Made by a program: the position numbers and the translations under genes. From assembly GCF_036507355.1 (NCBI RefSeq), contig NZ_AP027884.1: a DNA stretch of 4,112 bases; one strand, 5' to 3'. The DNA comes from Escherichia coli. Its GTDB lineage: Bacteria; Pseudomonadota; Gammaproteobacteria; Enterobacterales; Enterobacteriaceae. Of the stretch, positions 370 through 4,112 are shown one piece after another; the first letter of the stretch is position 1; every line of letters begins with the position of its first letter. The notes below the pieces were generated by a model. It was not told the DNA's origin. It saw nothing but the letters and a program-made list of their open reading frames with translations, and did no database searches.

Positions 370-1038
370 CTAATAAAAAGACCTGTTTAACTTATTTTTA
401 TATTCAAGTATAGATCTTTTTATTATATGATACGAGGAGGAAAAGATAACGGCTATAATTAACGTTAGAGCCATAATTAAAGCTGGTTTATACTTTTTAT
501 TCACTATTTCATTATTTATTGAAATGAAGTTTTTTTCTCCGGTGGTGTTTATTTTTGTTAATAATGCAACTTTTGCATATGTTTCAGTGCCATTTATATA
601 GTTGCTGTCCTGGTTGTTAACTATGCTTTTATAAGTTTTATAATCTTGGATGTACCAGTCATCAATAGCTTTATGGATAGCGTTTACTTCAGCGGTAATC
701 AGTGGTTTGTAACGGTCATCACCAGCCCATGACAGGATTATTTTTTTTCCTTTTTCATCTATATTTGATGTTATAGACTTGCTTTTATTGTTTATAATTG
801 ATTGTATGATATTCGCTTTACAATAAAAGTCAGACCCACAGTTAATAATCATACTTGGTGAATTAGCGATCATATTTAATTCGTACTTTATATTTATTTT
901 GTTTTTGTTTATCAGTAAGAAAATAGATGACAAAATCAATGAGAAAACAACAAACAAAATAATACTCACGATTTTTTTCTTAAGAAAGAGAAATAACTCG
1001 ATGAAATCAATATCAGGTGAATTGTTTTCCATTTTCAT
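370..1038 (-). CDS. Short Wzz/Cld-like polysaccharide co-polymerase family protein (222 aa, bitopic membrane protein: N-terminal TM, about 140-aa periplasmic domain, C-terminal TM)
   Basis: A 669-nt ORF in roughly 25% GC DNA, where stop codons are frequent, is very unlikely by chance. The N-terminus MKMENNSPDIDFIELFLFLKKKIVSIILFVV parallels the Wzz motif M..ENN...IDLI(D/E)LL.QLW.GK..II followed by a TM helix. The C-terminus KPALIMALTLIIAVIF plus short basic tail parallels the Wzz C-terminal P-rich/TM segment. Hydrophobic stretches at about residues 23-43 and 186-206. Confidence 0.55.
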   Translation of the reverse strand: MKMENNSPDIDFIELFLFLKKKIVSIILFVVFSLILSSIFLLINKNKINIKYELNMIANSPSMIINCGSDFYCKANIIQSIINNKSKSITSNIDEKGKKIILSWAGDDRYKPLITAEVNAIHKAIDDWYIQDYKTYKSIVNNQDSNYINGTETYAKVALLTKINTTGEKNFISINNEIVNKKYKPALIMALTLIIAVIFSSSYHIIKRSILEYKNKLNRSFY

Positions 1039-1130
1039 ATACCAACAATAGTTATTAAATTATAGCTTAAATAAATAAATAAAATTAAAATAGCCGTGAT
1101 GAATATTTTCGCTGATTTAGTATATTTCAT
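1035..1130 (-). CDS. 31-aa hydrophobic micro-protein (MKYTKSAKIFITAILILFIYLSYNLITIVGI), predicted single TM; stop overlaps the Wzz-like start (ATGA)
   Basis: Hand translation of the minus strand: ATG at complement of 1128..1130; TGA stop shares 2 nt with the ATG of the 370..1038 ORF, the arrangement typical of translational coupling. Below the ORF-track size cutoff. Confidence 0.45.
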   Translation of the reverse strand: MKYTKSAKIFITAILILFIYLSYNLITIVGI

Positions 1131-1282
1131 TTTAAAATCCAATCAAATAAAAACATTTTACCTATTATTTAGGTGTGAGAAAACTCCTAAAATCAATTTT
1201 TTTTTGTTTGTTTTTTGTTCGGTTATGTCTATGGAGAGAGTTGTTATCAGCCTGTATCCTTTCCACATATTTTAAGATCTTC

Positions 1283-1311
1283 TTGAGATCCTTGTGTTAC
1301 AGCCGTAATCT
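1283..1311 (+). promoter_or_regulatory. ColE1-type RNA II (primer) promoter: -35 TTGAGA (1283..1288), 17-bp spacer, -10 TAATCT (1306..1311)
   Basis: Position and sequence correspond to the pMB1/ColE1 RNA II promoter (ttcttgagatcc...gcgtaatct). Confidence 0.75.
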
Positions 1312-1318
1312 CTTGGTC

Positions 1319-1426
1319 TGAAAACGAAAAAACCACCCGGCAAGGTGGTTTTTCGAAGGTTCATTAAACCGGCAAGTTTATGAACCGTGGTAACAGGGTG
1401 TACAAGACCGCTGCCACCAAAATCGT
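1319..1426 (-). ncRNA. RNAI: RNA I antisense copy-number control RNA (about 108 nt)
   Basis: Complementary to the 5' region of RNA II. The 5' end is placed by alignment to the pMB1 RNA I start (ACAGUAUUUGG, here ACGAUUUUGG). The 3' stem-loop ACCACC-loop-GGTGG plus U-tract lies at 1325..1350. Confidence 0.8.
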
Positions 1427-1860
1427 CCTTCTAGTTTAGCCGCAGTCTGGCTCTAACTTCAAGAACTCTGCATCAGTAATCTCTTGTACACCCTCTACCA
1501 ATGGCTACCGCCAATGGCGATTTGTCGTGCCTTTTCGGGTTGGACTCAAGACGATAGTTACCGAAAAGAGCGTGGTAGTCGGACTGAACGGGGGGTTCGT
1601 GCATACAGTCCAGCTTGGAGCGAACTGCCTACCCGGAACTGAGTGTCAGGCGTGGAATGAGACAAACGCGGCCATAACAGCGGAATGACACCGGTAAACC
1701 GAAAGGCAGGAACAGGAGAGCGCACGAGGGAGCCACCAGGGGGAAACGCCTGGTATCTTTATAGTCCTGTCGGGTTTCGCCACCACTGATTTGAGCGTCA
1801 GATTTCGTGATGCTTGTCAGGGGGGCGGAGCCTATGGAAAAACGGCAAGCCCGCATCCTT
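1320..1860 (+). ncRNA. RNAII: RNA II pre-primer of a ColE1-type origin (approximate ends; RNA/DNA switch estimated near 1845..1865)
   Basis: Extended similarity to the pMB1/ColE1 ori, e.g. ggactcaagacgatagttaccg, ctgaacggggggttcgtgca, cagcttggagcgaac, ggaacaggagagcgcacgagggagc, cagggggaaacgcctggtatctttatagtcctgtcgggtttcgccac, caggggggcggagcctatggaaaaacg. Confidence 0.85.
1433..1462 (-). promoter_or_regulatory. RNA I promoter: -35 TTGAAG (complement of 1457..1462), -10 CTAAACT (complement of 1433..1439)
   Basis: Same layout as the pMB1 RNA I promoter (TTGAAG ... 17 bp ... CTACACT). Confidence 0.7.
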
Positions 1861-2062
1861 TTTCCGGCCTTTCTTGACCTCCGCTCCATCTCGTTACCTC
1901 GTCATTCGTGAGCCGGTACCGCTCGCCGCAGCCGAACGACCGAGCGTAGCGAGTCAGTGAGCGAGGAAGCGGAATATCTCTTGTATTGCATCTTCTGCTG
2001 ACGCGCCGGTGCCTCCTTTTTCTCCTGCCACATGAAGCACTTTCATAAAGTGTTACTCCACC

Positions 2063-2130
2063 GTAGCATATTGAGCCCATATACACTCCGCTAGCGCAAC
2101 GTGACTGGTTCAGGGCTGCGCCCCGAAACC
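2063..2130. other. ColE1/pMB1-type bom/oriT-like (nic region) sequence
   Basis: catatacactccgctagcgcaacgtgactggttcagggctgcgccccga parallels the pBR322 bom region ccagtatacactccgctatcgctacgtgactgggtcatggctgcgccccga, which lies between ori and rop in pMB1 derivatives. Confidence 0.6.
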
Positions 2131-2164
2131 CTCTAACAACCTCTCAGCTACTGGATATCACCCC

Positions 2165-2314
2165 ATGCCATCTGAATATGATGAACAACTGGATTCGACT
2201 GATACGCAGCTTCCCGGCGAATATGACCTTTTTGATTTAATGGCGCAGGTTACTGAAGAGAACCTGCACGCCCCGGTGGATTTTGGGCCGCCTGTCGGCC
2301 GTGAAGTGTTATAG
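2165..2314 (+). CDS. Hypothetical small acidic protein, 49 aa (MPSEYDEQLDSTDTQLPGEYDLFDLMAQVTEENLHAPVDFGPPVGREVL)
   Basis: Hand-translated ORF immediately downstream of the bom-like segment; no clear Shine-Dalgarno; no recognised family. Could be a chance ORF. Confidence 0.25.
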   Translation: MPSEYDEQLDSTDTQLPGEYDLFDLMAQVTEENLHAPVDFGPPVGREVL

Positions 2315-2338
2315 CTTTTTCGCTTATCCGCGTACGTG

Positions 2339-2413
2339 GTAATACGCCGGTATTACATCTTATTTCTTTATTTTCATGTAATTACAGGTGGTTGTAATAC
2401 GTTGCGTATTACA
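2339..2413. promoter_or_regulatory. Cluster of three palindromic operator-like sites sharing a GTAATAC/TGTAAT half-site
   Basis: GTAATAC-gccg-GTATTAC (2339..2356); TGTAATTACA (2377..2386); TGTAATACG-ttg-CGTATTACA (2393..2413). All arms are perfect. Confidence 0.5.
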
Positions 2414-2580
2414 TAAATAAACGGGGACTTCAGTTTTTACCTTTTAATTCATGCAATTGCGATGAAAATCGCGGTTGCGTATGGTGTATGACCATTTAAG
2501 GGATAATGTAACCTGACTTTTAAAGAATGAATCTATCTTTGGTAGCGCATGAGATCGATAAAAAGCGTTCCACATCAGGC

Positions 2581-2600
2581 GGTTCATGGATACATGAACC
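2581..2600. promoter_or_regulatory. Perfect palindrome GGTTCATG-gata-CATGAACC
   Basis: 8-bp perfect inverted arms with 4-bp spacer, immediately upstream of the phased direct-repeat array. Confidence 0.45.
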
Positions 2601-2603
2601 GGA

Positions 2604-2684
2604 AAGGACAAAAATAAGACAATTGTAGGACATTTTTTGCGTTTTACTCTTATTTTTGGACTATTATGAGACAAATGTAAGACA
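2604..2684 (+). repeat. Iteron/operator-like array: two sets of three 7-bp direct repeats (consensus T-R-R-GACA) at exact 11-bp spacing, separated by a 30-bp gap
   Basis: AAGGACA 2604, TAAGACA 2615, TAGGACA 2626; TTGGACT 2656, TGAGACA 2667, TAAGACA 2678. Spacing of about one helical turn; the array ends 14 bp before the ATG at 2698. Confidence 0.6.
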
Positions 2685-2697
2685 TTATGGGCGGTAT

Positions 2698-3066
2698 ATG
2701 GCGAATTTTAACCCTGGTCCAAGAACAGCCATTGCAGCTGTCAGGGATTCCAAGAACGATATAGAAACCTGGAAGAAAAATGGTATCCGTAGGGAAGAGA
2801 TTGTGACTGTACTGAATAAACGTTACGGCCTGAATATCTCACTGGTTGCGTTTGATAAGGCTCTTTACAGATTGAGAAAAAGTACAGATGAACCGTCTCT
2901 TGCTGATGTGGATTCTGTGTCTGCTGCAGAAACGAATTTCTCTGAAGCCAGTGGGCCTGAAAATGGTTTTTTTCTGTCCGGGAATGACTTCATGCGAGCA
3001 GAAGAAGAATCTCAAAGAATGGTTGAGTCATTCAGAGATAGCCTTGGCAGGAAGAAAGGATTCTGA
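2698..3066 (+). CDS. Hypothetical protein, 122 aa from ATG 2698 (ORF track extends to a TTG at 2656); basic N-terminal half, acidic C-terminal tail; possible DNA-binding protein
   Basis: Open frame of 120+ codons directly downstream of the phased repeats; N-terminal segment NGIRREEIVTVLNKRYGLNISLVAFDKALYRLRK is HTH-like by eye; no family recognised with confidence. Confidence 0.5.
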   Translation: MANFNPGPRTAIAAVRDSKNDIETWKKNGIRREEIVTVLNKRYGLNISLVAFDKALYRLRKSTDEPSLADVDSVSAAETNFSEASGPENGFFLSGNDFMRAEEESQRMVESFRDSLGRKKGF

Positions 3067-3272
3067 TTTTGAATTCTAAGTAGTGAAATAGTGGATCCTC
3101 TACTCGAAATTGTCGGATACCTGCAATTACCTACCGTGCCTTACGGCTTGGTCAATGCCTCACGGCCACGCAATAAATTGCGTCCCCGTTCACCGTTTTC
3201 GGATAAGAAGAACATCGGAAACAGGACTTACCCCGGCTGAATGGCGTGAATTTCCGCGCTATGCACTTGCGC

Positions 3273-3284
3273 GCATACTCATGC
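3273..3284. promoter_or_regulatory. Candidate ArgR-box-like palindrome (GCAT-actc-ATGC) in the Xer accessory region
   Basis: Palindrome centred about 109 bp upstream of the XerC arm, where cer-type sites carry an ArgR site; sequence only loosely resembles the ARG box consensus. Confidence 0.3.
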
Positions 3285-3386
3285 ATGCCGTAAAAACAGA
3301 GCCTGCGCGTTTCTGGCGGGTTTTCGGGTGGTTTGTTGCCTGTTTTACCGGTTTCCCGTCAGAAACGCCCTCAGCGCCTCTCAGGC

Positions 3387-3414
3387 GGTGCACGCAACGG
3401 ATGTTATGGTAAAT
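3387..3414 (+). other. Xer site-specific recombination site (cer/psi-like multimer resolution site): XerC arm GGTGCACGCAA, 6-bp central CGGATG, XerD arm TTATGGTAAAT
   Basis: XerD arm is identical to the cer XerD arm; XerC arm differs from psi (GGTGCGCGCAA) at one position; 11+6+11 layout. About 200 bp of potential accessory sequence lies upstream. Confidence 0.6.
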
Positions 3415-3432
3415 CCAGCTGATTGGCAGGTA

Positions 3433-3458
3433 CAAAAAAGCCCCGCAGGGCTTTTTTG
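3433..3458. terminator. Bidirectional rho-independent terminator (AAAAAA-GCCC-cgca-GGGC-TTTTTT)
   Basis: Stem flanked by an A-run upstream and a T-run downstream, between the Xer site and the IS1 right end. Confidence 0.6.
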
Positions 3459-3503
3459 CTATGAGTTAGCCATATTTTCGTGCGAATTTTTCATCGGAAT
3501 CGC

Positions 3504-3526
3504 GGTGATGACTCCAACTTACTGAT
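3504..3526. repeat. IS1 terminal inverted repeat (IRR)
   Basis: GGTGATGACTCCAACTTACTGAT, the canonical IS1 terminus. Confidence 0.85.
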
Positions 3527-3914
3527 AGTGTTTTATGTTCAGATAATGCCCGATGACTTTGTCATGCAGCTCCACCGATTTTGAAAACGACAGTGACTTC
3601 CGTCCCAGCCTTGCCAGATGTTGCCTCAGATTCAGGTTATGCCGCTCAATGCGCTGCGTATATCGCTTGCTGATAACGTGCAGTTCTCCCTTCAGGCGTG
3701 ATTCATAAAGCGGCCAGCCATCCGTCATCCATACCACGACCTCAAAGTCCGACAGCAGGCTCAGAAGACGCTCCAGTGTGGCCAGAGTGCGTTCACCGAA
3801 TACGTGCGCCACAACCGTCCTCCGAATCCTGTCATACGCGTAAAACAACCAGCGCTGGCGTGATTTAGCGCCGACGTAACCCCGCTGTTCGTCCATTTCA
3901 GCGCAGACAATCAC
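3519..3914 (-). CDS. insB: IS1 InsB (shown from first in-frame ATG; in IS1 the transposase is the InsAB' fusion made by -1 frameshift at the A6C motif, here complement of about 3959..3967)
   Basis: ORF-track protein [28 protein letters not shown]...HYLNIKHYQ matches IS1 InsB; the TTAAAAAAC slippery motif is present on the minus strand just upstream. Confidence 0.9.
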
Positions 3915-3940
3915 ATCACCGCCCGGTTGTATGCGCTAGG

Positions 3941-4112
3941 TTACCGACTGCGGCCTGAGTTTTTTAAGTGACGTAAAACCGTGTTGAGGCCAACGCCCAT
4001 AATGCGTGCACTGGCGCGACATCCGACGCCATTCATGGCCATATCAATGATTTTCTGGTGCGTACCGGGCTGAGAGGCGGTGTAAGTGAACTGTAGTTGC
4101 CATGTTTTACGG
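3941..4112 (-). CDS. insA: IS1 InsA, 3' portion (stop codon = complement of 3941..3943)
   Basis: The frame continues from the window start; 34 codons + 1 junction codon + 57 codons gives 91 aa plus stop, the InsA length. C-terminal sequence ...[16 protein letters not shown] is followed by TAA. Confidence 0.85.

Follow-up and report, generated by a model that had tools for sequence, protein, structure and literature searches.

A probable multimer-resolution site of the mwr sub-type on a small ColE1-type plasmid of Escherichia coli

Positions 3207-3414 of the window (the whole stretch of DNA analyzed, 4,112 nucleotides) very probably form the multimer-resolution site of a small ColE1-type plasmid, and this site would belong to the mwr sub-type of the cer family. 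Positions 3100-3417 are 97.2% identical over 318 bp to mwr of plasmid pJHCMW1 (L037 3028-3345), and from this near-identity we infer that the site supports conditional resolution dependent on XerCD, ArgR and PepA. Judged by its sequence, the site is of a sub-type that is already known and well studied. Two points appear to be mildly new: the organization of the site, which is found in two parts in pJHCMW1, and the support from covariation for an Rcd stem-loop, combined with a promoter that has apparently decayed in the mwr clade.

Results

The plasmid and its cargo

The window is a complete small ColE1-type plasmid. Another E. coli plasmid, p713Rt_4 (4096 bp), is 100% identical to it over positions 3080-3520. 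RNAI was found on the minus strand (Table 1), so that RNAII, the primer, and the Xer site are both read on the plus strand. All ColE1-like plasmids are reported to carry their resolution site in the orientation of RNAII (PMC2831885). The window follows this rule, with the ArgR side of the site reached first by read-through from the origin. The Xer module sits between an ORF for a hypothetical protein of 136 aa (2656-3066) and an IS1 element.

Some features of the rest of the plasmid may be recorded here. The 136-aa ORF, on the plus strand, has a weak, sub-threshold Pfam match only. A second plus-strand ORF (2165-2314, 49 aa) is AbrB/MazE/SpoVT-like according to the annotation of p713Rt_4. Both belong to the backbone shared with pJHCMW1 and pLAO95, which have similarly sized ORFs at the corresponding positions. 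The cargo segment 201-1400 is low in GC (0.24-0.35, against about 0.5 elsewhere in the window). Its minus strand encodes, at 370-1038, a protein of 222 aa that contains a GNVR domain (Pfam PF13807, E 4e-9). The protein resembles a fragment of a Wzz-like polysaccharide chain-length regulator and here adjoins IS1 on a 4-kb ColE1-type plasmid.

Table 1. Features of the predicted resolution site and its surroundings, in window coordinates
Feature	Position	Strand	Evidence or remark
RNAI	1324-1425	-	Rfam RF00106, 101.6 bits
Accessory sequences, about 180 bp	3207-3386	+	homology to ColE1 cer and mwr; DNA bound by PepA and ArgR in the family
ARG box (predicted ArgR-binding 18-mer)	3270-3287	+	half-sites CGCAT (3272-3276) and ATGCA (3281-3285); aligns with ColE1 TGCAT-AGGT-ATTCA
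Position homologous to the -10-like hexamer of candidate Pcer	3291-3296	+	TAAAAA, or AAAAAC in register; degenerate
Rcd-like stem-loop	3300-3378	+	14-bp stem 3307-3320 / 3355-3368; covariation, covariance model, fold
Conserved 15-nt block GGGTGGTTTGTTGCC	3326-3340	+	near-invariant; identical to ColE1
Inner pairs of the Rcd-like stem-loop	3327-3332 with 3338-3340 and 3347-3349	+	consensus fold
XerC-binding arm GGTGCACGCAA	3387-3397	+	pattern match; identical to mwr XerC arm
Central (strand-exchange) region CGGATG, 6 bp	3398-3403	+	CGGATG also in second pJHCMW1 site and in pLAO95; mwr has CAGATG
XerD-binding arm TTATGGTAAAT	3404-3414	+	identical to ColE1 cer
Symmetric hairpin CAAAAAAGCCC-cgca-GGGCTTTTTTG with A6/T6 flanks	3433-3458		bidirectional intrinsic-terminator shape
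3' remnant of TM2-domain gene, 11 codons and stop (DSDEKFARKYG*)	3466-3501	-	matches C-terminus of WP_031942343.1 in L038
IS1 right end	3504-4112	-	inverted repeat GGTGATGACTCCAACTTACTGAT at 3504; element wraps the window ends to 159, 768 bp in total

The Xer core and its accessory DNA

The pattern GGTGC-N4-AA-N6-TTATGKTAAAY matches the window once, at 3387-3414 on the plus strand and without mismatch, where 0.01 matches are expected by chance. The match has the build of a cer-family core, with an 11-bp XerC arm, a centre within the range of 6-8 bp and an 11-bp XerD arm. This bears out the 28-bp site with a perfect cer-type XerD arm that a preliminary description of this DNA had proposed, the arm being that of ColE1 cer, as well as its distance of about 90 bp from IS1 (89 bp to the start of the inverted repeat at 3504). 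The XerC arm had been called psi-like; 10 of its 11 bases do match psi, but it is identical to the XerC arm of mwr, and the site is otherwise not psi-like. In the cer-family set the centre is 6, 7 or 8 bp long and the 6-bp versions CGGATG, GGGATG and CAGATG recur, so a core of 28 bp falls within the usual natural variation. About 200 PLSDB plasmids, mostly of E. coli and Klebsiella, contain the core of the window unchanged, and searching the full-text literature for the core sequence strings returned unrelated primer matches only.

The stretch of about 180 bp upstream of the XerC arm, an extent taken from the literature (PMC2699498), is homologous to ColE1 cer in a pairwise alignment with NC_001371, in which the ARG box, the core and a long conserved block all correspond. 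The similarity to cer-family accessory regions on which the earlier reading depended is thus present, being alignable with ColE1 cer and reaching 97.2% with mwr. A unique core combined with such accessory DNA upholds the classification as an Xer multimer-resolution module of the cer family.

The palindrome GCAT-actc-ATGC, previously placed about 109 bp upstream of the core at the position where ArgR would bind, is supported in that role by the alignment: it is part of CGCAT-ACTC-ATGCA at 3272-3285, centred 108.5 bp before the core, and falls column for column on the ARG boxes of ColE1 and mwr. The bare motif TGCAT-N4-ATGCA, with at most one mismatch, is expected 0.26 times by chance and was matched in 44 of 200 shuffles; its meaning as an ARG box therefore comes from homology. 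As is typical of the family, one ARG box precedes the core by about 100 bp; its match is suboptimal. For the family the consensus reads TGCAT-N4-ATGCA. Where the window and mwr have CGCAT, several otherwise near-identical sites have TGCAT, which makes C3272 the position at which two forms differ. The ARG box as a whole is identical to that of mwr, where this base is known to be suboptimal. It is the base affected in the improved site mwrT, which carries a C-to-T change in the ArgR site (PMC7399989).

An undivided counterpart of the two sites of pJHCMW1

The mwr sub-type is recognizable in the window by three features: the XerC arm reads GGTGCACGCAA, the centre is 6 bp long, and the first T of the ARG box is replaced by C. 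The core of mwr, GGTGCACGCAA-CAGATG-TTATGGTAAAT, is one base apart from that of the window in the centre, and two further bases differ just ahead of the XerC arm. To the right of the XerD arm the window follows not mwr, but a second site in pJHCMW1 (L037 466-529). Window positions 3395-3457, which comprise the centre, the XerD arm, the downstream sequence and a hairpin, are 96.9% identical to this second site. Its XerC arm is poor, and it is without accessory sequences. We take it to be dxs; a literature search for 'dxs' together with pJHCMW1 gave no match.

Plasmid pLAO95 (L040, 2857 bp) is colinear with pJHCMW1 466-3342 at 99.4% identity and without gaps, and it has one site only, with the core and the right flank of the window. 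This colinearity indicates that pJHCMW1 is built like pLAO95 except for a module, Tn1331 together with about 480 bp, that has been inserted at the core and now lies between two Xer cores. In pJHCMW1 the breakpoint falls between the XerC arm and base 2 of the centre, on the side where XerC cleaves, and is consistent with the footprint of an XerC-side exchange and with Xer-mediated insertion of the module. On these alignments, the site of the window is the natural, undivided form of what occurs as two sites in pJHCMW1.

Comparison with further plasmids bears on how such sites are used. A pattern scan of one genome per species found 32 loci with cer-family sites. An alignment of 31 distinct sequences was then made from the scan loci, the window, ColE1, and the separately added CloDF13 and pJHCMW1. 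Many of the matches (L003-L034) are on short contigs in Pseudovibrio, Streptococcus, Bradyrhizobium, Corynebacterium and Clostridia MAGs; these are most likely contaminating enterobacterial small plasmids rather than evidence of true hosts.

More than a dozen loci combine near-identical accessory DNA with differing cores and with unrelated flanks to the right of the XerD arm, and mosaicism associated with Xer sites is a known pattern (PMC6764390). This speaks for the idea that the site serves mainly as a junction for the Xer-mediated gain and loss of DNA modules, with dimer resolution being negligible. The structure of pJHCMW1, in which the module is placed exactly at the core of an otherwise gapless pLAO95 sequence, points in the same direction, as do the failure of mwr to stabilize pJHCMW1 in L broth (PMC2699498) and the role in cointegrate formation and resolution with which Xer sites have been credited (PMC6764390). 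However, the whole 180-bp accessory region, which imposes intramolecular selectivity, is more than 95% conserved across these plasmids, which argues that resolution is selected. Moreover, roles in module exchange and in resolution are compatible. We consider it unlikely that the site is mainly a module junction, and favor multimer resolution as its function.

A stem-loop of the Rcd type

In ColE1 the cer site gives rise to Rcd, a regulatory RNA that is made in cells containing dimers and delays their division by way of tryptophanase and indole. Rcd is about 70 nt long and is transcribed in the direction of RNAII from the promoter Pcer within cer, which has a 15-bp spacer. It folds into one stem-loop, and its conserved sequence of 15 nt has an identity of 86.7% in CloDF13 and ColE1 (PMC2831885, PMC5935869, PMC4393325). 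In our alignment exactly 2 of the 15 bases of the block differ between CloDF13 and ColE1 (13/15 match), in agreement with the published figure.

The RNAalifold consensus of the 31 sequences contains a 14-bp stem that surrounds the 15-nt block, and compensatory double changes occur at 8 pairs of this consensus. Although the sequences are related and had been chosen by means of a pattern, the stem columns lie outside this pattern. Over the 31 sites, 99.2% of the stem cells are paired, as compared to 87.3% in shuffles (none of 500 is as high) and a maximum of 66.6% with slid partners, a control that keeps the relatedness. A covariance model trained on 14 non-mwr sites only has one match in the window, at 3300-3378 on the plus strand, with 77.9 bits, an E-value of 6e-18 and standard pairs throughout. 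Rfam has no Rcd family, and ColE1 cer itself obtains just a chance miRNA match there, so that the absence of an Rfam match in the window is uninformative. On this evidence the window holds an intact Rcd-type element. The preliminary description had held that an Rcd-like transcript was possible and not demonstrable. Conservation of the stem-loop is in fact demonstrable by covariation.

The inverted repeat 3307-3320 / 3355-3368 might alternatively act at the level of DNA, as a PepA contact, a bend or a cruciform, and not as RNA. It is located within the accessory DNA that is wrapped by PepA, no convincing promoter is found upstream of it in the mwr clade, and the relatedness and pattern selection of the sequences used also have to be kept in mind. 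A constraint on double-stranded DNA would nevertheless be symmetric, and the data are not: there are 86 G·U wobble cells and no A·C cells on the plus strand over 15 columns of the stem, and the plus strand folds to -39.5 kcal/mol (z -3.7) as compared to -30 for the minus strand, which is better by 9.5 kcal/mol. This asymmetry points to an RNA read on the plus strand. The description of Rcd as a single stem-loop with a 15-nt sequence, whose 86.7% figure the block fits (PMC5935869), also argues against a role as DNA alone. We give the DNA-level explanation little credence, and prefer an Rcd-type RNA element.

Whether this RNA could be made from a promoter of the ColE1 type is a separate matter. 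We infer that Pcer consists of xTGCAT-15 bp-TAAAAT, overlapping the ARG box, because the spacing fits the literature and because 15 of the 17 non-mwr members have a -10 hexamer matching in 5/6 positions (TAAAAT, TATGAT or TACAAT, 15 bp after xTGCAT). This -10-like hexamer is kept in ColE1, CloDF13 and other cer-family sites (alignment columns 29-34, window 3291-3297). All 14 mwr-type members, including the window, instead have AAAAAC in register, or TAAAAA one base earlier. The aligned hexamers are thus GCGCAT and AAAAAC in the window (or TAAAAA with a 14-bp spacer), as opposed to TTGCAT and TAAAAT in ColE1. A consensus scan of 3000-3600, which allows only spacers of 16-18 bp, found no sigma-70-like promoter. 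The degenerate -10 in the mwr clade makes expression of the stem-loop in the window uncertain.

It is conceivable, though we would call it improbable, that in the widespread mwr clade the stem-loop has been kept by selection while the -10 of a ColE1-type Pcer has been lost, so that the RNA does not come from a dimer-sensing promoter. It could then be produced by read-through from the origin or the upstream ORF and end at the hairpin 3433-3458, or else the stem could have another purpose. If true, a large group of small clinical plasmids would have a differently wired Rcd checkpoint or lack one.

The downstream hairpin and the IS1 junction

The two arms of the hairpin to the right of the core (3433-3443 and 3448-3458) are 11 bp long, 100% complementary and separated by a 4-nt loop, with folds of -16.9 kcal/mol (z -2.8) on the plus strand and -18.9 kcal/mol (z -4.1) on the minus strand. 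A consensus terminator scan of 3000-3600 missed it, since its T-run belongs to the stem. The same hairpin is present after the second site of pJHCMW1 and after the site of pLAO95, and similar ones follow the core in L009 and L003.

In related plasmids, a gene for a 100-aa protein with a TM2 domain lies on the minus strand and ends just to the right of the hairpin; WP_031942343.1 of L038 is annotated as a TM2 domain-containing protein. In the window this gene is truncated by IS1, and the hairpin begins 7 nt past the TAA stop codon of the remnant, which marks it as the probable terminator of the TM2 gene. The hairpin is accordingly a predicted terminator of a convergent gene and not a part of the cer module. 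The flanking bidirectional terminator of the preliminary description is therefore real in that the hairpin is terminator-shaped on both strands, but it belongs to the TM2 gene and not to the Xer module. Its A6/T6 symmetry would also let it stop plus-strand transcription leaving the site, and it probably also protects the site against transcription that arrives from the cargo.

An intact TM2 gene is found in the Salmonella plasmid NZ_CP127218.1 (L038, 1121-1325), in which centre, XerD arm and hairpin are the same as on the right side of the window. Its left side scores only 13.4 bits with the stem-loop model and directly follows rop, which makes it a site whose accessory DNA is different or reduced.

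An identical plasmid is annotated with a frameshifted IS1 family transposase. The IS1 element (768 bp) has no 9-bp target-site duplication, its flanks being cggaatcgc and cgcgaggtg, and plasmid pYLPD4c (L039) has the same IS1 junction as the window. These observations suggest that IS1 mediated a deletion or rearrangement here and did not simply insert.

Open reading frames across the site

It is highly improbable that the ORFs 3110-3412 (100 aa), 3328-3525 (65 aa) and 3259-3435 (minus strand, 58 aa) are real small proteins: all three are open in the window and one related record annotates a hypothetical protein there, but the frame of 3110-3412 is interrupted by stops in 27 of 29 homologous sites, near-identical mwr-type sites included, indels of 1-2 bp separate cer-family members, none of the three has a Pfam match, and 3328-3525 extends over the core, the hairpin and the remnant of the antisense TM2 gene to a stop within IS1, which makes it a product of the junction. 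We have therefore rejected a coding reading, as had been anticipated for 3110-3412 and 3328-3525.

Discussion

A model for the action of the site may be taken from cer and mwr. Both need ArgR and PepA, and XerC forms the Holliday junction, which at mwr is resolved independently of Xer (PMC2699498). In the window, ArgR would bind the ARG box (3270-3287) and PepA the flanking accessory DNA, so that two directly repeated copies of the site on a plasmid dimer would be interwrapped. XerD would bind 3404-3414 and XerC 3387-3397. XerC would then exchange the top strands where its arm meets the centre, and the resulting Holliday junction would be resolved without further Xer catalysis to give two monomers.

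The mwr site is sensitive to osmolarity and supercoiling, which has been attributed to its ARG box and core, and in standard L broth its resolution of dimers is too poor to stabilize its plasmid (PMC2699498). As the window has C3272 in common with mwr and also a 6-bp centre, we expect resolution in E. coli to be conditional and, as for mwr, efficient only at high negative supercoiling (low osmolarity). Given how poorly mwr resolves in L broth, the site of the window may contribute little in E. coli.

The analysis allows an unannotated stretch of 250 bp, for which matching RefSeq and PLSDB records have no feature, to be labeled as a plasmid stability site of the mwr/cer type. Three spurious ORFs can be dropped as well, and the hairpin and the IS1 junction are accounted for. 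Beyond annotation its significance is small. For plasmid biology there are two modest points, namely the unsplit site as compared to the two sites of pJHCMW1, and the stem-loop that is kept in the mwr clade while its presumed promoter has decayed.

Comparison with known systems

Among the known Xer sites, psi of pSC101 shares with the window a 28-bp core with a 6-bp centre and a XerC arm, GGTGCGCGCAA, that is identical in 10 of 11 positions. However, its XerD arm (TTATGTTAAAC) differs, and psi employs ArcA and not ArgR (PMC5357621). blastn with a word size of 7 detected no similarity between pSC101 and window 3100-3520, and pSC101 has no match to the covariance model of the Rcd-type stem-loop. 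Membership of the psi type is rejected on these two grounds. The proposed alignment with known sites thus has a divided outcome: ColE1 cer, mwr and CloDF13 parB are related to the window, but psi has no accessory similarity.

The parB site of CloDF13 shares the 6-bp centre (GGGATG), the XerD arm, the architecture of the stem-loop and a related A-rich sequence 3' of the core. It differs by a very unlike XerC arm (GGTACCGATAA) and by 2 of the 15 bases of the conserved block. CloDF13 (L035) has another XerD-type arm on the minus strand at about 5540-5575, in GGCGCCCAGCT-TGCGACG-TTATGGTAAAT with TGCGACG as the centre; this second site is without cer-like accessory sequence and resembles the second site of pJHCMW1.

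The cer site of ColE1 has the same layout as the window, from the ARG box through accessory DNA with the Rcd stem-loop to the XerC arm, centre and XerD arm. It also has an identical XerD arm and 15-nt block and the same orientation relative to RNAII. Overall identity is about 73%. The centre of cer is 8 bp long as compared to 6 bp in the window, the XerC arms are 3 bases apart, and the ARG box half-sites match TGAAT/ATTCA in 9 of 10 positions in ColE1 cer, but more poorly, in 7 of 10, in the window. The -10-like hexamer TAAAAT of cer is replaced by AAAAAC/TAAAAA. In the ColE1 reference NC_001371 (L002, around 3840) the 5' arm of the stem is one G short (GATCGCGCAG), which leaves one position unpaired; close relatives of ColE1 (e.g., L033 and L028) all read GATCGCGGCAG, and the missing G may be an error in the old sequence.

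The closest known system is mwr of the Klebsiella pneumoniae plasmid pJHCMW1, studied by Tolmasky, Sherratt and colleagues, which has the same XerC and XerD arms, the same ARG box and the same length of the centre as the window. The likeness extends to the backbone of pJHCMW1, which from the origin to the site (ori and two small ORFs) is 90.7% identical to the window over 2.1 kb.
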